DNA of 64,000 nt from Alphaproteobacteria bacterium (GCA_017463185.1 JAFTPS010000013.1:3826-67825); one strand, 5' to 3'; counted from the first letter of the stretch, positions 1 to 32,838 are shown. Notes: generated by a model from the sequence alone, not told the origin. Made by a program: numbers and translations.

Positions 1-1385
1 GACGCACAACCGCAGAATATAATAAAAATGTTGGTGCGTATAACAGTCAACAAGGGAATATATTGATAAAAACTGCCCCACAGGGTGTAAATGTAAATAA
101 TAATAATCCGGGTGTTGATGGTCAACGTGGACACTATGCACGGTGGGATGCGACAACGGCAACTTGTTACATTCGTGTTGCGGCTTATAACAAAGATAAG
201 CATATTACCAACAGTTGGTTGTTCGGCGCGCTGGGGGATGATAAGCCGGCCGAGGTATGGAAAGCTGCGGGTGATACGTTCAGCTGTAATAAAGATTTGT
301 TTGGATTTTCCCTGATGAATGATACCAGCACAGTTGCCGTTGTTGGGGTTGGTGGTGGAACACTGGTTGGTGCGGGGGTTGGTGCTATTGCAGGACATGG
401 AAAGCGTGATTTTGATTGTACGCGTGAAAGTCATTTGAAAGAACTGACCGAACAATTGCGCGCCACGGGCAAGATTGGAACATTGAACCAATATTTGGAT
501 ATATCCGACCGCGTGTCCACAACCGGCGGCCAGATTACGGTGTCCCAGTGCGAAGCGATTTTGGATTTGTATAACACATATGATGAATATGCGGTTGCGG
601 TTGAAGCGTGCCAGGATGTAGAGGTTTATAGGGAAGAAGTGTCTTTGGAAATCAGCTTGGGTTGTGAAAATTATACAAATATAGACGAAGACTGTTTTGC
701 AGAACACGAAGTGTCAAAAGCCTGTGTCGGACACAACTTTAAATCGGCGCAAGAATGTCTGGATTTCCTGGCAAAAGAATTTATGGCCGGTGCAGGTGTG
801 TCGGGCGAATGCACGTTTAAGCCGTTTAATCTGGATAAATTAGAGGGTACTGGAATTTATTGCAGTGCCAGTGCCAGTACCGGTTGCCGTTTGCCAGGCG
901 AGATTCGCAAAGAACTGACCCCGTTGGATGGAATCTTTGAAAGCCTGACTATATTAAAAGGTGAAAAATCCAATATGGCAAAAAGTATTGGAATTGGCGC
1001 CGCGGTTGGTGCGGGAACGGGTGGCTTGGCCACGGCGATAACCGCGTTTGTTGAACGCAATAATATCAACTGTCGCGTTGGTGATGGTTTGGAACAGGTT
1101 GGTTTTGGTAAATCACATTCAATCGGTTCATTAAAAGATTTCTATGTAAAATGGAACTTGCGTCTGCCGGATACGGTGGCACCAACGGCGACGATTACCG
1201 ATTGTGCATCGTGGAAAAATACATGTGCGACATTTACTGATTTGGGGCAGTGTACCGCCGCGCAATTTAACTATAAACCAGTTGATGCGCCAACGGTCAC
1301 ATTGGTTCGTTCCGCTTGTGCGGTTTCGGGCAGTGCCTGTGTTGAAAATTATCCTGTTGCTAAGTCGTATGGCGCGTGTGAATAA
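1..1385 (+). CDS. Cysteine-rich, glycine-zipper-containing secreted or membrane protein. It is 5'-partial: the frame is open from base 3 to the window edge, so the TTG at 63 in the ORF track is an artefact.
   Basis: In-frame translation of bases 3-62 has no stop. Many paired Cys separated by helical E/K/A-rich segments. Two Gly-rich hydrophobic stretches (AVVGVGGGTLVGAGVGAIAG and IGIGAAVGAGTGGLATAITAF). Resembles the Cys-rich proteins at 36167-38978. Confidence 0.5.
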   Translation, partial: RTTAEYNKNVGAYNSQQGNILIKTAPQGVNVNNNNPGVDGQRGHYARWDATTATCYIRVAAYNKDKHITNSWLFGALGDDKPAEVWKAAGDTFSCNKDLFGFSLMNDTSTVAVVGVGGGTLVGAGVGAIAGHGKRDFDCTRESHLKELTEQLRATGKIGTLNQYLDISDRVSTTGGQITVSQCEAILDLYNTYDEYAVAVEACQDVEVYREEVSLEISLGCENYTNIDEDCFAEHEVSKACVGHNFKSAQECLDFLAKEFMAGAGVSGECTFKPFNLDKLEGTGIYCSASASTGCRLPGEIRKELTPLDGIFESLTILKGEKSNMAKSIGIGAAVGAGTGGLATAITAFVERNNINCRVGDGLEQVGFGKSHSIGSLKDFYVKWNLRLPDTVAPTATITDCASWKNTCATFTDLGQCTAAQFNYKPVDAPTVTLVRSACAVSGSACVENYPVAKSYGACE

Positions 1386-1387
1386 AA

Positions 1388-1410
1388 AATCCCCGAAAGG
1401 GGATTTTTTT
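1388..1410. terminator. Bidirectional rho-independent terminator (ATCCCCGAAAGGGGAT hairpin with flanking A and T runs) between convergent genes.
   Basis: Perfect 6-bp GC stem with T-run on the + strand and A-run on the other side. Confidence 0.6.
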
Positions 1411-1462
1411 GTGATAAGTATCTTGGATAAATTTTTTGCTAATTTTTGTTTTCTTGCGCTAA

Positions 1463-2901: not shown

Positions 2902-2957
2902 AATTTCACCTTGCGAATGCATGAATACTGGTATATCATTGCCGCATAAGGAAACTG

Positions 2958-2999
2958 AGTGGTTAGTGTAAGTGGTTAGTGGCTAGTGGTGGAATACAT
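2958..2999 (+). repeat. GTGGTTAGTG-family dispersed repeat, copy A. Forms the left inverted arm flanking the four-helix-bundle gene.
   Basis: AGTGGTTAGTGTAAGTGGTTAGTGGCTAGTGGTGGAATACAT. 38/42 identical to the copy at 9768-9809. The reverse complement recurs at 3338-3370. Confidence 0.7.
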
Positions 3000-3363
3000 G
3001 AAATCAGTCAAGGATTTAAAAGTTTATCAATGTGGATTTAAATTGACGATTGATGTATATAGGGTTACGGCTTGCTTTCCACCGAATGAACAATTTGGGT
3101 TAGTTTCACAGATGCGTAGGGCCGCTGTGTCTGTATGTTCTAATTTAGCAGAAGGGGCGGCGCGTGGAACAACGAAAGAGTATTTGCATTTTGTGTATGT
3201 AGCAAAAGGCTCGGCTGCGGAACTGGAAGCACAAATAGATTTAGCGACTGCATTAGGGTTTGTTGAAAAGGCCAAAGCAGGACAAATACATAAAGATATA
3301 ACGGAAGTTTTAAGAATGTTATCAGGATTGATTCATTCACTAACCACTAACACTAACCACTAA
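2995..3363 (+). CDS. Four-helix-bundle protein (23S rRNA intervening-sequence-protein family).
   Basis: About 122 aa. Signature [74 protein letters not shown]. The ATG at 2995 is preferred over the GTG at 2986. Confidence 0.7.
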
Positions 3364-3370
3364 CAACTGG
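3338..3370 (-). repeat. GTGGTTAGTG-family repeat in inverted orientation. It forms the right arm and overlaps the last codons and stop of the four-helix-bundle gene.
   Basis: CACTAACCACTAACACTAACCACTAACAACTGG is the reverse complement of the TAGTGG-type repeat at 2958-2999. Confidence 0.65.
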
Positions 3371-3377
3371 TAATAAC

Positions 3378-5171
3378 ATGAAGCAATCTAATATCCGGAA
3401 TTTTTCAATTGTTGCACATATTGACCATGGCAAGTCCACTTTGTCGGACCGTTTAATTGAATTTACGGGCGGTCTGCAATCGCGCGAGATGAAGGCCCAA
3501 GTCTTGGATTCTATGGATATTGAACGTGAACGCGGTATCACGATTAAAGCGCAGACGGTGCGCCTGAATTACAAGGCAAAAAATGGCGAGGTTTATCAAC
3601 TGAATCTGATGGATACGCCGGGGCACGTAGACTTTTCGTATGAGGTGTCACGGTCGTTGGCCGCGTGCGAGGGGGCTTTGGTGTTGGTTGATGCAACCCA
3701 GGGGGTGCAGGCACAGACGTTGGCGAATGCGTATCTGGCGTTGGATAATGATTTGGAAATGTTACCTGTGTTGAACAAGATTGACTTGCCGTCCAGTGAT
3801 GTTGCCGCCACACGTGAACAGATTGCTGATGTTATCGGTCTGGATGCGAACGAGGCGTTAGCCGTATCGGGCAAAACCGGTGATGGTGTACCAGAATTAT
3901 TGGAAGAGATTGTAAATAAATTGCCCGCGCCGCATGGTGATGAAAATGCACCGACACGTGCGCTGTTGGTGGATTCGTGGTATGATTCATATCTGGGGGT
4001 TGTTATTCTGGTACGTGTGGTTGACGGTAATTTATCGCGCGGTCAGAAAATTAAATTTATGGCAACCGGGGCAGAATATGTTGTTGATAAAATTGGCTAT
4101 TTTACACCCAAAATGGTAAATGTTGATGCGTTACATACCGGGGAAATAGGTTTTATTATCACGGGAATGAAAACAATTCACGATTGCAAGGTTGGCGATA
4201 CAATCTGCGATTCGCGGGCGGAAAATATGAAAATGTTGCCCGGTTTTAAGCCGTCTGTGCCGGTGGTGTTTTCGTCATTCTTTCCGGTAGAGGCGGATGA
4301 TTATCCAACGTTCCGTGAAAGTGCGGAAAAGTTAGCTTTGAATGATGCTTCGTTTATGTTTACTGTTGAAAAATCATCTGCGTTGGGGTTTGGTTTGCGA
4401 TGTGGATTTTTGGGATTGTTGCACATGGAAATTATCAGTGAAAGATTGGCGCGTGAATTTAATCTGAATCTGATAAATACCGTGCCCAGCGTGCTGTACA
4501 AGATTCATTTGCGCGATGGCAGTGTCATAGATTTGGAAAATCCCGCTGATATGCCGGACCCAACACGAATCGCATCTATTGAAGAACCGTGGGTGCGTGC
4601 AACGATTATGATGCCCGATAAATATATGGGCGGAATTATGTCGCTGTGCTCGGAACGACGCGGAATCCAGGAAAATATTTCATATGTTGGTAATCGTGCG
4701 GTATTGGTATATCAGTTGCCGTTGGCGGAAATTGTGTTTGATTTTTATGACAGAGTAAAGTCTATTTCGTCAGGCTATGCGTCGTTTGATTATGTTGTAT
4801 TCGGATATCAACCATCCGATTTAGTAAAGGTTTCTATTCTGGTGAACGAGGAAAATGTTGAGCCTTTGTCATTTATGTGTCATCGGTCTTTTGCGGAAAA
4901 GCGTGGGCGTCAGATTGTTGAAAAATTAAAAGATTTAATTCCGCGTCATCAATTCAAAATTCCGTTGCAGGCAGCTATTGGTGGCAAGATTATTGCAAGA
5001 GAGACTATTGCTGCATATCGCAAAGATGTGACGGCAAAATGTTATGGGGGGGATATAACCCGTAAACGTAAATTGTTGGAAAAACAGAAAGAGGGTAAAA
5101 AGCGTATGCGTACCTTTGGTAATGTGGAAATTCCGCAATCGGCGTTTATCAATGCATTAAAGGTATCTTAA
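3378..5171 (+). CDS. lepA: Elongation factor 4 (LepA).
   Basis: 597 aa. N-terminal [22 protein letters not shown]-binding domain, DTPGHVDF and NKIDL motifs, and the LepA-specific C-terminal region. Confidence 0.95.
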
Positions 5172-5182
5172 AAGGATTTATT

Positions 5183-5593
5183 ATGAAATGGTTTGATTAT
5201 TTGAAAAAAACACCTGTGGTACAAATTGTTGCAGATTGGCAGGAATACAGAAAATTAAAACAAGAAACTAATGCAGCACGGGATGATGCGGATTCTGCAT
5301 ATTTGTCTTTGAGACGATTTTATCCCATTGAAGCAAATATAAACAGTGGTAATGCGTGTGTAAAATGCAAACGAATTATTGATGACTTTGATGTTCTGAA
5401 TCAATCGCCGTGCAATTATTTTGTTGTATATTGTCCACATTTTGCGCCTCGGGACCAGGAAAAGAAATGTTCAAATAATTTGTGTGTGGGGTATCGGGCT
5501 AACAATCGTTATTATGATGCCAGGGTTCGGTATGATGCGTTAAAGGCAAAGTCTGATGCGTTTTGGAATAAAAAATTTGCAAATGTAAAATAA
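5183..5593 (+). CDS. Hypothetical protein with a Cys cluster (CVKCKRI...C..YCPHF...C..NLC), possibly a zinc ribbon.
   Basis: 136-aa ORF with plausible coding content. No recognisable family. Confidence 0.35.
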   Translation: MKWFDYLKKTPVVQIVADWQEYRKLKQETNAARDDADSAYLSLRRFYPIEANINSGNACVKCKRIIDDFDVLNQSPCNYFVVYCPHFAPRDQEKKCSNNLCVGYRANNRYYDARVRYDALKAKSDAFWNKKFANVK

Positions 5594-5612: not shown

Positions 5613-6620
5613 ATGGCGCACCAGTTTTATTTTAATCCGTATATCTTGGATAACTTGCCTGCGCCAAGTTCGGGGTTTGATGTTGTTCAGGATATGTCTG
5701 AGCCGCGGTTGCGTATGTATATTACCAGTCGTGGGGTTAAAACTTTCTTTGTGCGCAAACGTGTTCATGGCAAAGATAAGCGCATTTTAATTGGCAACTA
5801 TCCTGATATGGATATAGAGGATGCGCGCAGTGCGGTTCCCACACTGTTGCAGGATGCGATGAAAAAGCCACCCGTGCGTCGTAAAAAAATTACATTTAAA
5901 AAATTTCTGGATTTATATTTAACGAATCGGGTTCGCCGGGGCGAGGATTCTCATACCAAACTGGTGCGGGCAATCAATCGTCATTTGTCTGATTTGTTTG
6001 AAAAAAATATTTGTGAAATATCAGCAACTGATATTCAAAATGTGATTTCACAAATTGGTGGGCCAGCCATTGCAGCGCGTATGCAGGAATTATTGCAGAG
6101 TATTTTTAACTATGCGATAGAAACTGGGTATGTGAAAAAAAATCCAACCGCCAATATTCAAAAGGTTCCACAAAATCGCCGTGTGCGTCCATTAAATCGT
6201 GCGGGCTTGCATCGCTTGATTGCAGCCATAGACCAATATCCAGACCAGACATTGCGGGCGGCATTCTTTATGTTGATTTATGGTTTTGTGCCGCGCTCAA
6301 AAGTTTTTTCTATGGCGTGGGAAGATTTAGATTTTAATCACGATATGTGGTTGGGGCGACCTTTGTCGGACCGTGCCATTGTTTTGTTGCAGGATTTACC
6401 CCAGGATGGACATTGGGTTTTCCCGGGACGGGGCGGTATGCATTTGATGGACCCGCGTACAGCCTGGCGACGCGTTGCGGTGGCGGCTGGGATTCCGGGA
6501 TTGACAATGGATGATGTGTATAAATTCCTGATGCGTCAGTTGGTTTGGGCGTCCGACCGCGAGGATTTTCGTGCAAATATAAATTCATTGTTGGATGATA
6601 TATTTTCCCAAAACATATAA
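5613..6620 (+). CDS. P4-type tyrosine integrase homologue, probably degenerate or inactive.
   Basis: The N-terminal integrase SAM-like and core-binding regions are recognisable (FVRKRVHGKDKRILIG ... FKKFLDLYL ... LIYGFVPRSKVFSMAWEDLDFNHDMW). The expected HxLR box and terminal catalytic Tyr are not evident (LTMDDVYKFLMRQL, ends ...DDIFSQNI). Confidence 0.55.
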   Translation: MAHQFYFNPYILDNLPAPSSGFDVVQDMSEPRLRMYITSRGVKTFFVRKRVHGKDKRILIGNYPDMDIEDARSAVPTLLQDAMKKPPVRRKKITFKKFLDLYLTNRVRRGEDSHTKLVRAINRHLSDLFEKNICEISATDIQNVISQIGGPAIAARMQELLQSIFNYAIETGYVKKNPTANIQKVPQNRRVRPLNRAGLHRLIAAIDQYPDQTLRAAFFMLIYGFVPRSKVFSMAWEDLDFNHDMWLGRPLSDRAIVLLQDLPQDGHWVFPGRGGMHLMDPRTAWRRVAVAAGIPGLTMDDVYKFLMRQLVWASDREDFRANINSLLDDIFSQNI

Positions 6621-8368: not shown

Positions 8369-8390
8369 GAATAATCGTTTTTTAATTTTT

Positions 8391-8417
8391 TATCCCCCAG
8401 AAATTTTGGGGGATTTT
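8391..8417. terminator. Bidirectional terminator (ATCCCCCAGAAATTTTGGGGGAT) between convergent fabF and the 8420-8875 gene.
   Basis: 7-bp GC stem with flanking T-runs. Confidence 0.6.
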
Positions 8418-8419
8418 TA

Positions 8420-8875
8420 TTATTTCTGATTTTCTTTCAGTCTGTAAATTATATTGAATAATTGTGCGGAATTGTCGGTCGTTTGAATTTTGCCAGTAAT
8501 ACGTTTTTCTGCCATATCTAGTGTCTTAAAGAATTTAGGTGAACGCACGCGTGTAATAAAGCGTTTCAAATCGCATTGTGTTTTATCCAATGCGCTGCCG
8601 ACTTCGTGTTTTGTTCTTTCGTCCAATAAACTGTGTTGCGGATTTAGTGATGTGCCGCGTTGCAGGCTAATATGACCCTTATATTTCATTTTTGGATATG
8701 TTCCAATTTTATATGGTGCTTTACAGGTTGCGCTGATAATCAGGCAATATGGGTAATCGGCCAGACCGCGTTTTGTAAATGTGTAAAGAATATCGTCGTT
8801 GCTGATATATGCGTCGGCTTGTGTGTCTTTGTCCATGATAAATGCGATTGCGATATCATAAATTTCGTTTTTCAT
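8420..8875 (-). CDS. Hypothetical protein (151 aa).
   Basis: Intact ORF with a terminator at its 3' end. No recognisable family. Confidence 0.3.
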   Translation of the reverse strand: MKNEIYDIAIAFIMDKDTQADAYISNDDILYTFTKRGLADYPYCLIISATCKAPYKIGTYPKMKYKGHISLQRGTSLNPQHSLLDERTKHEVGSALDKTQCDLKRFITRVRSPKFFKTLDMAEKRITGKIQTTDNSAQLFNIIYRLKENQK

Positions 8876-8960
8876 TTTTTAACCTCTTATTTGTTATTCC
8901 TGTGATAGGTATAGCACAAAAAACATTGTTTGTCAATAGGTAGGTTTTATAATTTATTTT

Positions 8961-9250
8961 TCCTTGTTTTTATGGGGCGGGTTTGGTAGAATTTTCTGTG
9001 AAACCATCAGGGATTGTGGTTTCGGGGCCTTAGAAAGCCTACTTTGCGCCGACACGGTGTTTGTGTCGTTCCCTACGCATAGTATGGGGCGCATTGTGCG
9101 CCATTTATTATGCACTAATCACCCGGACCTTTGTGTCGGGGTGCCGCCGGTGTATGCAACAGGGCGCATGCGCCCAAAGACCGGCGGGAACATGCAAAGT
9201 GTTTTTCTAACACCCCGACCGTCAATTCCATTGGCGGTTTTGTTTTTTAT
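8961..9250 (+). other. GC-rich, hairpin-dense non-coding segment. Candidate structured RNA or long 5' leader upstream of the pilin-like gene.
   Basis: Local GC is far above the surroundings. Several perfect or near-perfect hairpins: GAAACCA/TGGTTTC, CGACAC/GTGTCG, GGCGCATTGTGCGCC, GGGCGCATGCGCCC, and CCGCCGGT...ACCGGCGG enclosing about 30 nt. The 101-aa ORF over it looks non-coding. Confidence 0.3.
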
Positions 9251-9265
9251 ACAAAGGGGTGAAAT

Positions 9266-9628
9266 ATGAAATGTCAAAAAATGCTTGTGGGACTGGCGTT
9301 ATCATTGGTTGTGATACCGGCGTTTGCCGCGGCGAATATTGATGGACTATGTGGACTGATTGCCGAAATGCAGGGAATTTTCAAAATTCTGCGGACATTG
9401 GCATTCGCGGGGGCGGGATTTATTCTGGCCAAATATGCGTGGGAAGCAATCAGTACTGGTAAATTAAATGGTGAAGCAGAACTTATCAAAGGGGTACAGA
9501 AAACAGGTATTCCAATGCTGGTGGGGCTAATTTTGCTGTTTATGATTGGCACTATATTACAGGTGCTAAGTTCTGCTTCTGGGGCCAGTGTGTTGGGGTG
9601 CAGTGACGAGTTGTTTCAAGGATGGTAA
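9266..9628 (+). CDS. VirB2/TrbC-like type IV secretion pilin candidate.
   Basis: 120 aa. Signal peptide ending AFAAA, then two hydrophobic helices separated by a short polar loop. Size and topology are typical of VirB2 and TrbC pilins. No other T4SS genes in the window. Confidence 0.45.
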   Translation: MKCQKMLVGLALSLVVIPAFAAANIDGLCGLIAEMQGIFKILRTLAFAGAGFILAKYAWEAISTGKLNGEAELIKGVQKTGIPMLVGLILLFMIGTILQVLSSASGASVLGCSDELFQGW

Positions 9629-9643
9629 ATAAAGGGGGGTAAA

Positions 9644-9739
9644 ATGAGAATTACATATGAACATAAAAAGTGTATAGTTTATTATGTTGCCGTCGTTGCA
9701 ATATTGCTGTGCGGCGTTATGATTGGAATAGGGTATTAA
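9644..9739 (+). CDS. 31-aa single-pass membrane peptide immediately downstream of the pilin-like gene.
   Basis: MRITYEHKKCIVYYVAVVAILLCGVMIGIGY. Preceded by GGGG (9-12 nt upstream) and followed directly by the terminator. Confidence 0.3.
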   Translation: MRITYEHKKCIVYYVAVVAILLCGVMIGIGY

Positions 9740-9741
9740 AA

Positions 9742-9766
9742 ATCCCGCCATTGGCGGGATTTTTTT
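9742..9766 (+). terminator. Rho-independent terminator (ATCCCGCCATTGGCGGGAT plus T7).
   Basis: Member of the stereotyped AAAATCCCNCC...GGNGGGATTTTT family. Confidence 0.65.
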
Positions 9767-9767
9767 C

Positions 9768-9809
9768 AGTGGTTAGTGTAAGTGGTTAGTGAATAGTGGC
9801 GGAATACAT
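9768..9809 (+). repeat. GTGGTTAGTG-family dispersed repeat, copy B (gene-less copy).
   Basis: AGTGGTTAGTGTAAGTGGTTAGTGAATAGTGGCGGAATACAT. 38/42 identical to 2958-2999, including the GGAATACAT tail. Confidence 0.7.
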
Positions 9810-9834
9810 AAAAAGTTATTAGTGTTTTGTTATT

Positions 9835-9892
9835 ATAATGTGTGATACGACCATCAACACTGGCATAAAATTAAAATCGCCACAGGGGCGAT
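9835..9892 (+). repeat. 58-bp direct repeat, copy 1.
   Basis: TATAATGTGTGATACGACCATCAACACTGGCATAAAATTAAAATCGCCACAGGGGCGAT. Repeated at 9992-10049 with 1-2 mismatches. Confidence 0.75.
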
Positions 9893-9991
9893 AAAAATGT
9901 GTCGTGCCTGGGCTGTAATTCCCACCACTTTGTGGCGGGCCCCTTTCACTTCGCGTGCAAGCACGCCTCGTTCCGAACCACACATTATTGC

Positions 9992-10049
9992 ATAATGTAT
10001 GATACGACCATCAACACTGGCATAAAATTAAAATCGCCACAGGGGCGAT
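9992..10049 (+). repeat. 58-bp direct repeat, copy 2, abutting the 3' end of tRNA-Pro.
   Basis: Near-identical to 9835-9892. Ends 10 nt from the tRNA-Pro CCA end. Confidence 0.75.
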
Positions 10050-10059
10050 TTGAATTTTA

Positions 10060-10136
<77 letters not shown>

Positions 10137-11969: not shown

Positions 11970-12105
11970 ACTAGTGAATGCTGAACAGTGAAAATGGAAT
12001 TTATAAAATATCGTCATATCAGCGCGGGCCTCTATCCACTAACGACTCGCCACTAATTTTATTTGTGGTTGCAATTTGGCTTTGTTTTGTAATAATCCAT
12101 ACACT

Positions 12106-15028: not shown

Positions 15029-15107
15029 GGTCAGGAGGTTAGTAACAATCCATAGAATTGCGTGCTTATTTATGTATATCGCAACCCTCCTGACCGATGG
15101 TCAGGAG
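15029..15107. promoter_or_regulatory. Palindromic operator-like motif upstream of the Cys-rich gene: half-site GGTCAGGAGG at 15029-15038, full palindrome CCTCCTGACC-GAT-GGTCAGGAG at 15087-15107.
   Basis: Perfect 9-bp inverted repeat with a 3-bp spacer. The same palindrome recurs at 44481-44502 upstream of another secreted-protein operon. Confidence 0.5.
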
Positions 15108-15373
15108 ATTTTTTCGTCACAGACAATAAAAAAAGACGCGTTTTTGCGCCATTTTAAGTCTTGTTTGTTGACGCTATGGCAGAGGTTACTACGCCTCATC
15201 GTCAGAATACCTGACGACGTTTCTATTCTATCAAATCAAGTTTTTTTATGCAATATTGAATTTAACAAGGGATGTTGTACGGATTAAAAATTTGTCATTG
15301 TTGTGAGTAGGGTAAAATCCTAATTTTTCGCGCTTTTCAAGCGGAAATCTTATATTTTTTTCCTAGTTTTTTC

Positions 15374-31467: not shown

Positions 31468-31623
31468 GTCCGTGGGACGATAAACAAAGATTTGACTTTT
31501 GTCGTGTTTTGTATAAAATTATGCGGCAAAATAAAAATAGCCCACGATAAAAAAATCTTGGGTTTGGGTATCGGGGTGCGGGTGGACTCGCGCTTCGCAG
31601 TTAAATAAAAAGGAAAATAAAAA

Positions 31624-32001
31624 ATGGCACGTATAGCAGGTGTTAACATTCCGACAGAAAAGCGCATTGAAATTGCGTTGCAATACATTCACGGTATTGG
31701 GCCAGCAAAAGCGGCACAAATTTGTGAAGCGTTGAAATTAAAAGACGGTTTGCGCGCAAAAGATTTGACGGACGCGGATGTTATCAAAATTTCTAATTAC
31801 ATAGAAGAAAACTTTAAAGTAGAAGGTGATGTTCGTCGTGAAGTTACAATGAACATTAAACGTCTGCAGGATTTGAAAACCTATCGCGGTATTCGTCATC
31901 GTAACCGTTTGCCGGTTCGTGGTCAGCGTACACAGACAAATGCTCGTACCCGCAAGGGCAAGCGCGTGGTAGTCGCTGGTTCCGCAACCAAGGGGAAATA
32001 A
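31624..32001 (+). CDS. rpsM: 30S ribosomal protein S13.
   Basis: [26 protein letters not shown]... Confidence 0.96.
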
Positions 32002-32546: not shown

Positions 32547-32551
32547 TAAAA

Positions 32552-32578
32552 ATCCCGCCAACGGCGGGATTTTTTTTA
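32552..32578 (+). terminator. Rho-independent terminator directly after rpsK (ATCCCGCCAACGGCGGGAT plus T8).
   Basis: Strong GC hairpin plus T-run. It ends the ribosomal operon where rpoA would normally follow. Confidence 0.7.
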
Positions 32579-32667
32579 TCGTCATTCGTTATTAGTATAT
32601 TCTTTTTTGTCATTGCGAGCGAACGCGCCTGCCATACGAAGCCTTGGCGTAGTGTGGTGGCAAACCA

Positions 32668-32706
32668 GTAAATTAGTGTAAGTTGTTAGTGGATAGTGTT
32701 GAAATT
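32668..32706 (+). repeat. GTGGTTAGTG-family repeat, degenerate copy C.
   Basis: AGTAAATTAGTGTAAGTTGTTAGTGGATAGTGTTGAAAT aligns with copies at 2958 and 9768. Confidence 0.5.
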
Positions 32707-32811
32707 CCGGGGTGGGGGGGGGAAAAGATAGAAATACCAATCCCCCACCCAGGTTTTACTAATTCACTGTCGTTCATAAGTAAAACCGTCCCGCCCCACA
32801 AGGGGGCAGGG

Positions 32812-32838
32812 AAAATCCCGCCATTGGCGGGATTTTTG
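32812..32838. terminator. Bidirectional terminator (ATCCCGCCATTGGCGGGAT). Serves the minus-strand Cys-rich operon ending at 32840.
   Basis: Same stereotyped hairpin. A second hairpin CCCGCCCCACAAGGGGGCAGGG lies just upstream at 32789-32810. Confidence 0.6.

Follow-up and report, generated by a model that had tools for sequence, protein, structure and literature searches.

Two features of bacterial genomes have been puzzles for decades: the nature of the intervening sequences (IVSs) of 23S rRNA that carry an open reading frame (ORF), and the excess of heptamer tandem repeats in intergenic DNA. Here we describe a single object that belongs to both. In a 64,000-nucleotide stretch of DNA from Alphaproteobacteria bacterium (GCA_017463185.1 JAFTPS010000013.1:3826-67825; hereafter the window), a small gene for a four-helix-bundle protein lies inside inverted arrays of heptamers directly ahead of lepA, and the same design recurs in 70-plus relatives. 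IVSs of 23S rRNA, which reportedly occur in Leptospira as well, offer the nearest comparison. The IVS of Coxiella burnetii is 428 nt long; its terminal inverted repeats make up a 28-bp stem, the loop of which holds an ORF for S23p, a protein of the PF05635 family (PMC4990558). Two to three tandem GACAGAT heptamers, whose copy number varies among strains, stand just before the S23p ATG, and RNase III cuts the IVS at the start of the first repeat (PMC4990558). The ORF itself is reported to be decaying and untranslated (PMC4990558).

Intergenic heptamer arrays have been studied in other work. In Xanthomonas, GGGAATC/GGGGAYT arrays form “convergent” inverted pairs (PMC4692102), and arrays of TAACTGA adjoin start codons with the C/A-type strand (PMC4679880). 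A supplementary table of the former paper places a GGGAATC x4 array over the start of XCC0516, on which the paper makes no comment (PMC4692102). Proteins of the PF05635 type have been treated from a third side: their RxxxSxxxNxxE motif has been described, and 18 of their genes have been located in cas operons, one of them 5 nt before cmr2 (PMC3936711). The Coxiella heptamers, the protein-free heptamer arrays and the PF05635 genes at cas loci have thus been described separately. We found them joined nowhere, and beyond the Coxiella IVS we found no literature link between the PF05635/TIGR02436/S23p family and heptamer arrays.

The gene at the center of the locus has 121 codons and lies between a GNAT gene (2479-2901) and lepA. 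Its product exceeds the curated cutoffs of both family models, with 121.2 bits (E=2.7e-35) against a cutoff of 33.8 for PF05635 (23S_rRNA_IVP) and 112.6 bits against 24 for TIGR02436 (“four helix bundle protein”). Residues 9-115 match the structure of Xcc0516 from Xanthomonas campestris (PDB 2gsc, E=1.7e-21), and little or no variation is seen in the family alignment at the residues of the RxxxSxxxNxxE motif, here R41, S45, N49 and E52. Crystals of family members contain five chains in both forms, and Xcc0516 is described, in a reference cited in PMC3936711, as an assembly of five four-helix bundles; the window protein is probably pentameric.

The 5′ arm, AGTGGTTAGTGTAAGTGGTTAGTGGCTAGTGGTGGAAT, is matched beyond the gene by an imperfect reverse complement of itself. 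Over 38 nt the arms are 71% complementary, and over a 24-nt core (2958-2981 and 3338-3361) the figure rises to 96%. Tandem Repeats Finder (TRF) reports a period of 7 in both arms, as AGTGGTT x4.9 (2958-2990) and CACTAAC x4.6. The two arms are paired in the predicted RNA fold (z=-3.3), and the energy of the arm–arm duplex is -44.9 kcal/mol, compared with -24.9 +/- 4.1 for shuffled sequences. The 10-mer GTGGTTAGTG, allowing at most one mismatch, occurs 12 times in the window, versus 3.7 times expected, and none of 100 shuffles reaches 12. The last eight codons of the gene (S-L-T-T-N-T-N-H) and its stop codon lie in the 3′ arm, and 10 nt separate the end of this arm from the lepA ATG. The cassette measures 411 nt in all (2958-3368). 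Two earlier claims about this DNA, that a PF05635-like gene is bracketed by inverted copies of a repeat and that its C-terminal residues SLTTNTNH are encoded by that repeat, are thus borne out. The four-helix-bundle gene is the only ORF between the arms, and no transposase of a known class is found there. The features of the cassette, and of its gene-less counterparts in the window, are collected in Table 1.

Table 1. Positions in the window of the lepA cassette, its parts and related gene-less arrays
Feature	Position	Strand	Basis or remark
Promoter-like site, TTGCGA-17 nt-TATCAT	2911..2939	+	Consensus scan, 9/12 positions; directly 5′ of the 5′ array
5′ arm, G/T-rich, about 5 AGTGGTT-type heptamers	2958..2995	+	TRF, pairing, repeat counts
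Four-helix-bundle gene, PF05635/TIGR02436 (ATG at 2998)	2998..3363	+	Profile matches, 2gsc, motif, dN/dS
3′ arm, C/A-rich, CACTAAC x4.6, reverse complement of the 5′ arm	3331..3368	+	TRF, fold, duplex energy
lepA, the gene whose leader holds the cassette	3378..5171	+	ATG 14 nt past the cassette stop codon
Gene-less copy of the 5′ arm	9768..9809	+	39/42 identical; TRF AGTGGTT x4.7; fold z=-2.3
Degenerate C/A-type array CTATCCACTAACGACTCGCCACTAA, opposite orientation	12032..12056	+	21/25; upstream of a + strand ORF starting at 12076/12107
Degenerate G/T-type array	32673..32705	+	29/33 versus the 5′ arm; fold z=-1.9

Two further readings of the arms were considered and set aside. A G-quadruplex, as has been proposed for GGGAATC arrays, is unlikely because the unit here has runs of GG only and no run of three G. 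An intrinsic terminator or attenuator was rejected, as no U-tract follows the 3′ arm and a terminator scan gave nothing between the gene and lepA.

The likeness to the Coxiella IVS is close. Both elements are about 410-430 nt long, with a PF05635 ORF in the loop of a terminal stem of some 24-28 bp, and both have tandem heptamers of variable copy number upstream of the ORF start (about five units, of period 7, in the window). An earlier suggestion of a link between this gene and rRNA IVSs was therefore apt, since the Coxiella element has its tandem heptamers in the corresponding place and is cut there by RNase III (PMC4990558). The window cassette nevertheless differs from the Coxiella IVS in several respects. 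It is not inserted in helix 45 or 25 of 23S rRNA but lies in an mRNA leader between protein genes, with the GNAT gene (rbfA in relatives) on one side and lepA on the other; an Rfam scan of the window detected no rRNA. Its ORF is under purifying selection, its 3′ arm overlaps the end of the ORF and abuts the next start codon, and its repeat is also present as gene-less copies elsewhere in the genome. The locus thus has what defines an IVS in its architecture, a PF05635 ORF enclosed by inverted repeats that form a long stem (96% in the core, with the fold and duplex energy given above), but not a position inside 23S rRNA, and we therefore do not count it among the rRNA IVSs but class it as a cassette of the IVS type that resides in an mRNA leader.

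The cassette is conserved at this site. Orthologues on metagenome contigs, with protein identities of 81%, 68%, 63% and 61%, all lie between rbfA and lepA, and all have both arrays. In every orthologous contig the order is VTT-domain gene, rbfA, four-helix-bundle gene, lepA, small ORFs and integrase-like gene. The block of -35 and -10 elements, together with the TTGCCGCA that follows it, is kept in 7 of 8 orthologous loci despite saturated synonymous sites. Relative to the nearest relative, the four-helix-bundle gene has a dN/dS of ~0.10 at a dS of ~1.07 (for lepA, dN/dS is 0.02); the non-coding 5′ arm is identical at 34 of 35 positions to that of L001 (loci used for comparison are given L numbers), where pS is 0.57 at synonymous sites. 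Because dN/dS is so low and the arm so well kept at this divergence, protein and arms are both under selection, and for the protein and each of the two arms this selection is purifying.

The arms also change together. In L224, the most distant orthologue, both differ from those of the window, with GTTGTAGG upstream and CCTACAAC downstream. Copy number, on the other hand, is labile, as reported for Coxiella strains: L011 and L012 encode identical proteins, and their 5′ arrays differ by exactly four units (28 nt). The cassette at lepA is thus old and vertically inherited, and no recent insertion. For this locus, the mobile origin considered plausible in the sequence-only reading is not supported, since the same site and the same promoter are found at a dS above 1; turnover is seen at other loci, as discussed below. 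The GNAT gene is restricted to the lineage of the window, and in all relatives rbfA runs straight into the promoter and cassette.

The pattern extends well beyond lepA, and we consider the family-wide pattern more interesting than the window feature itself. Metagenome contigs scanned with the protein alignment yielded 80 loci with genes of 42-68% identity, 70 of which had enough flanking sequence to be tested for inverted repeats; here the 150 nt upstream were compared with the region of the stop codon, and a score of 14 or more was required. Flanking inverted repeats were found for 80% of these 70 genes; for 264 other ORFs of these loci, the figure was 1.9%. The array unit varies by lineage (GAGTGAC, AAGTTAC, GTGGTTA, TAGTGAT, CGTGAAA, GCGTAAC, GGGGCGA and others), and, whatever the unit, the downstream arm is always the reverse complement of the one upstream. 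Clear periodicity is 7 in 52 arrays and 8 in nine, and is never seen in coding controls. The arms of a locus pair better with each other than with arms of other loci (-69 versus -50 kcal/mol, p=9e-16, 75 loci). The gene downstream is co-oriented in 48 of 58 cases. Counted from where the 3′ arm ends, its first in-frame ATG falls between -10 and +30 nt for 27 of 37 cassettes; the median distance is 13 nt, and that in the window 10 nt. No related cassette locus has a 23S rRNA signature. Nor did the protein-alignment scan find relatives in viral contigs, where its sensitivity was limited to two peptide patterns.

Cassettes of this kind directly precede the start codons of essential genes, including lepA, rpoC, frdB/sdhB and ftsJ, and are not confined to rRNA. 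Among cultured bacteria, Paludibacter propionicigenes WB4 carries one, with the gene Palpr_2982, between frdA/sdhA and frdB/sdhB, and Pirellulimonas nuda (CP036291, 2.212-2.216 Mb) carries one in the spacer between a glycosyltransferase and an ABC-transporter gene. In metagenomes, they are found at rpoB–rpoC (L223), ffh–ftsJ (L221) and dxs/rnhA (L219). The PF05635 genes reported in cas operons fit this picture, which carries a caution: such genes are not to be read as functional partners of their host operons, as a cas “association” might suggest. The rpoB–rpoC cassette (L223, 370-1060) is compound. There, an array with the 6-nt unit GTGACA is followed by the four-helix-bundle gene and then by an exact second copy of the array, which with a ribosome-binding site and an ATG heads a 50-codon ORF; the inverse array stands directly before rpoC.

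The heptamers of the window are themselves widespread. When one genome per species was scanned for GTGGTTAGTG..GTGGTTAGTG, at least 120 stretches were obtained, with arrays from Chloroflexota, Acidobacteriota, Cyanobacteria, Bacteroidota, Firmicutes, Planctomycetota, Proteobacteria and others. Among the 120 matches listed, to which the following counts refer, 117 (GTGGTTA)n arrays have no four-helix-bundle gene. The other three, in Ruminococcus, Leeuwenhoekiella (where the ORF is truncated) and Thiohalocapsa, flank such an ORF, and in each of them the inverse array lies on the opposite side. A broader hidden Markov model, applied to the 120 arrays for hidden four-helix-bundle ORFs, returned only those three. 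An inverse partner occurs 0-600 nt downstream of the G/T-rich array in 34 of the 120 and upstream of it in none (34:0), and most of these 34 inverted pairs enclose no ORF. Because reverse complementation leaves the G/T-first layout unchanged, this layout belongs to the pair and does not reflect the choice of strand; for the same reason, we dropped an earlier idea that tied the G/T-rich 5′ arm to the orientation of the ORF. Where solo arrays lie between co-oriented genes, the C/A-type strand is on the transcript in 24 cases and the other in six (24:6). In two ORF-less inverted pairs, L121 and L138, each array is adjoined on its inner side by an additional inverted motif (TTCGCATGCGGA / TCCGCATGCGAA), a hint that some lineages have a conserved boundary module.

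The arrays of the window belong to the bacterial intergenic heptamer arrays of the simple sequence repeat (SSR) or short tandemly repeated repetitive (STRR) type. Like those of PMC4679880 and PMC4692102, they consist of roughly 2-6 tandem 7-nt intergenic units, place the C/A strand before start codons, form inverted pairs that are always convergent and are scattered over distant phyla. They differ in that no protein family was linked to the arrays in those papers, whereas here the arrays bracket a PF05635 gene. Xcc0516 shares with the window protein the conserved motif, a homologous fold and a gene start overlapped by a heptamer array (GGGAATC x4), but the heptamer unit is another one, and the supplementary table of PMC4692102 lists no inverted partner.

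Given how common such arrays are, one might suppose that they are generic, slippage-prone repeats, that the two at lepA arose independently and that neither has anything to do with the gene. Among the matches listed, (GTGGTTA)n is indeed mostly unlinked to this gene class, and the four-unit, 28-nt difference between L011 and L012 shows how fast copy number can change. The presence of flanking inverted repeats at 80% of related genes versus 1.9% of other ORFs, the retention of the arms at the same site in relatives, their joint change in L224 and the 34:0 polarity of paired arrays already contradict this explanation, and we consider it extremely improbable. Thus, the possibility raised beforehand that the repeat is generic and the inverted pair accidental holds in its first half, in that the repeat is widespread without the gene class (117 of the 120 listed loci), and fails in its second, since chance clearly does not account for the inverted pair that surrounds the gene. 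A check proposed beforehand was whether other copies of the repeat flank four-helix-bundle genes or rRNA IVSs; the former was seen at three of the 120 listed loci, and an rRNA context was seen at none of the related cassettes.

Set beside the observed anatomy of the cassette, its conservation at one site, the co-variation of its arms and its generality across lineages, the explanation that we favor, and hold to be fairly probable, is that an RNA cassette of the IVS type resides in an mRNA leader, where RNase III probably cuts it and where its translation is probably coupled to that of lepA. Here we infer three processes, namely transcription from the 2911-2939 promoter, cleavage by RNase III and coupling to lepA. 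The promoter-like site is directly before the array, which places the 5′ array in the 5′ leader, beginning ~15-20 nt into the presumed transcript. From this conserved promoter, a transcript would run through the G/U-rich array, the four-helix-bundle gene, the C/A-rich array and lepA. The paired arrays would form a stem of ~24-38 bp, a length that fits the requirement of RNase III, and would close the small gene into a loop. This stem would lie against the initiation region of lepA, whose Shine-Dalgarno sequence is weak or absent, and would cover the site of ribosome loading. By analogy with the 23S IVSs of Coxiella and Leptospira, RNase III would most likely cut the stem and so part the lepA message from the cassette RNA. 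A second possibility, which may also act together with the first, is that ribosomes finishing the small ORF melt the stem and then re-initiate on lepA; they could do so because they terminate within the 3′ arm, where the stop codon precedes the lepA ATG by 14 nt. Coupling of this kind would account for the persistence of the cassette as well, since the stem would close over the lepA start if the small ORF were no longer translated.

Several points weigh against this explanation. First, counts of G·U versus A·C mismatches, which set sense-strand RNA pairing against DNA symmetry, are 106 versus 86 (p=0.17), which does not favor RNA pairing. Second, the promoter matches the consensus at only 9 of 12 positions. 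Third, a cut in the stem would leave the small gene without its stop codon, so that simple “excision” would inactivate rather than liberate the message. Finally, it leaves unexplained the strict G/T-arm-first polarity of the pairs (34:0), the abundance of gene-less arrays (117 of 120) and the role of the conserved protein.

The gene-less arrays, in particular, raise the question of DNA-level mobility. Repetitive extragenic palindromic (REP) elements are single imperfect palindromes, and the REP-associated protein RAYT is an HUH tyrosine transposase. As in REP/RAYT (REPIN) systems, one coding copy between inverted short repeats is accompanied here by many gene-less copies in the genome, and there is a similar asymmetry of frequencies, ~0.8 for arrays given the gene and ~0.025 for the gene given arrays (listed matches). 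The protein here is a four-helix bundle instead of an HUH tyrosine transposase, the repeats are tandem heptamers instead of single palindromes, and mobility is putative. The sequence-only reading had related the repeat to a REP-like intergenic family; the relation to a dispersed intergenic family stands, and the REP-like character gives way to tandem heptamer arrays.

Dispersed gene-less copies, a mark of REP, RAYT and miniature inverted-repeat transposable element (MITE) systems, are present in the window at 9768, 12032 and 32673 and at non-syntenic positions in the relative L229. The first of these had been noted earlier as identical at 38 of 42 positions; the copy is real, at one identity more, and both degenerate copies were likewise recovered. 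Similarity of the 9768 copy extends through the ribosome-binding region into the start codon, where ACATG has become ACATA (ATG to ATA), and near 9843-9865 there may be a weak partner arm. The copy directly follows a hairpin (9741-9761). Each of the three gene-less copies has a terminator-type hairpin 5-95 nt before it, as noted earlier; the cassette itself is preceded by the promoter-like site and not by a terminator. The array at 32673-32705 is followed by a poly-G/poly-C hairpin (~32712-32752) and by a short ACTAATTCACT segment. These gene-less arrays belong to the same repeat family and are either decayed cassettes or ORF-less relatives.

A segment GTCATTGCGAGCGAACGCG... lies just upstream of the degenerate 32673 array, in the 32590-32760 region of the window. 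Moreover, three near-identical hairpins, AATCCCGCC-NNN-GGCGGGATT, occur at 9741-9761, 32551-32571 and 32814-32834 (0 expected); the first is a few bases from the G/T-type array at 9768, and the second precedes the array at 32673 by ~100 nt. Units made of hairpin plus array are likewise present in L229 (8757-8822) and in an unrelated alphaproteobacterial metagenome-assembled genome (L093), and because of this recurrence the hairpin may be part of the dispersed repeat unit.

Cassettes and arrays do differ between related genomes. L219 and L221 share a neighborhood (dxs, rnhA, ftsJ and ffh), with identities of 46-73% for the host proteins and 68% for the protein of the cassette. The cassette is in the dxs–rnhA spacer of L219 and in the ffh–ftsJ spacer of L221, and in each the alternative spacer is empty. 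Similarly, the syntenic site of L229 lacks a counterpart of the solo copy at 9768, and the place of the hairpin-plus-array at 8757-8822 in L229 is taken in the window (1380-1440) by a terminator only. These differences indicate that cassettes and arrays have been gained or lost over time. Both pairs are strongly diverged, and neither (L219 versus L221, or window 1380-1440 versus L229 8757-8822) gave a clean filled/empty boundary.

One account of this turnover would be a DNA-level mobile element in which the arrays serve as terminal inverted repeats and the four-helix-bundle protein as a mobility or accessory factor. ORF-less pairs and solo arrays would then be non-autonomous, MITE-like or REPIN-like derivatives, and the lepA copy an old, fixed insertion. 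The different spacers of L219 and L221, the solo hairpin-plus-array copies at non-syntenic sites in the window and L229, the GTGGTTA units that flank such genes in Ruminococcus, Leeuwenhoekiella and Thiohalocapsa, the 34 of 120 listed arrays with an inverse partner 0-600 nt away (mostly ORF-less) and the RAYT/REP-like conditional frequencies would all be in keeping with such an element. Its machinery, however, is missing from the cassettes examined, beside which there is no transposase, recombinase or reverse transcriptase. Target-site duplications are not visible as direct repeats flanking the arms in the window, in its orthologues or in the comparison of L219 with L221. Moreover, the protein lacks a known catalytic fold, and the lepA-site cassette is stable beyond synonymous saturation. 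The C/A strand bias of 24:6 and the 3′ arms abutting start codons point instead to constraint at the RNA level, and different spacers in related genomes could equally mean differential loss. We therefore think this account rather unlikely.

The probable pentamer suggests another way in which protein and arrays could be related, as a regulatory pair acting in cis and in trans. The pentamer would bind the arrays, as RNA or single-stranded DNA, with one unit per subunit, and would thereby control how its own message, the downstream gene and every gene with a solo array are translated or how stable their messages are. The lengths of the arrays (~4.6-4.9 units) agree with the five chains of both crystal forms and with the description of Xcc0516 as five four-helix bundles, and the strongly conserved RxxxSxxxNxxE motif is a surface motif. 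Solo arrays adjoin start codons on the sense strand (see also PMC4679880), and a GGGAATC x4 array overlaps the XCC0516 start (PMC4692102, supplementary table). The homologous Avd serves diversity-generating retroelements as an essential accessory protein (PMC10053308). Against these points, array units vary widely across lineages while the protein motif remains constant, which argues against sequence-specific recognition by that motif, and 3-5 units would suit equally well the stem of at least 22 bp that RNase III needs. We judge a regulatory pair of this kind to be unlikely.

The window protein is not itself an Avd. The two share a homologous four-helix bundle, and the Avd models match it weakly (24.3 against a cutoff of 80 for NF033474, and 17.2 against 40 for PF22296), and neither a reverse transcriptase nor a template/variable repeat is found among the neighbors within 3 kb of the cassette or in the contigs of relatives. 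A possible link to the HEPN RNase superfamily was dropped; a survey paper on HEPN proteins has no mention of the family. PADLOC defense models gave no match.

More tentatively, PF05635 genes and short-period, mostly 7-nt, intergenic arrays could be two halves of one system. The cassette with its gene would be the autonomous form, ORF-less pairs and solo arrays would be its dependants or products, and the pentamer would recognize the arrays or help to generate them. We hold this to be doubtful but worth considering. If true, it would account for the pairs with the G-rich arm first on both strands. Further, the classical rRNA IVSs would be no more than the minority that resides in rRNA, within a class of RNA-level cassettes that spans phyla and colonizes the start-codon-proximal leaders of housekeeping genes. 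Apart from this reading, the design described here makes both of the puzzles with which we began open to experiment in cultured bacteria, one of them with a protein structure already solved.

In the wider surroundings of the cassette, the neighbors within 3 kb are the VTT-domain gene, rbfA, the GNAT gene, lepA, a small ORF and the integrase-like ORF. The last of these (5613-6620) has Arm-DNA-binding and phage-integrase central domains, with no match to a catalytic domain, and follows lepA in all orthologous contigs. Between it and lepA (5183-5593 in the window) are one to three small ORFs, highly divergent paralogues with invariant cysteines, whose copy number varies among relatives. Farther away, the solo array at 9768 lies inside a stretch (8375-9974) beside tRNA-Pro (10060-10136, minus strand) that has no counterpart in L229, and L229 has a duplicated tRNA 3′ end at 15073-15369, an att-like direct repeat; the region 8375-10136 looks like a small variable islet at tRNA-Pro. 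Finally, Rfam places an Alpha operon ribosome-binding-site element, unrelated to the cassette, at 31568-31656, with a score equal to the gathering threshold (38 bits).

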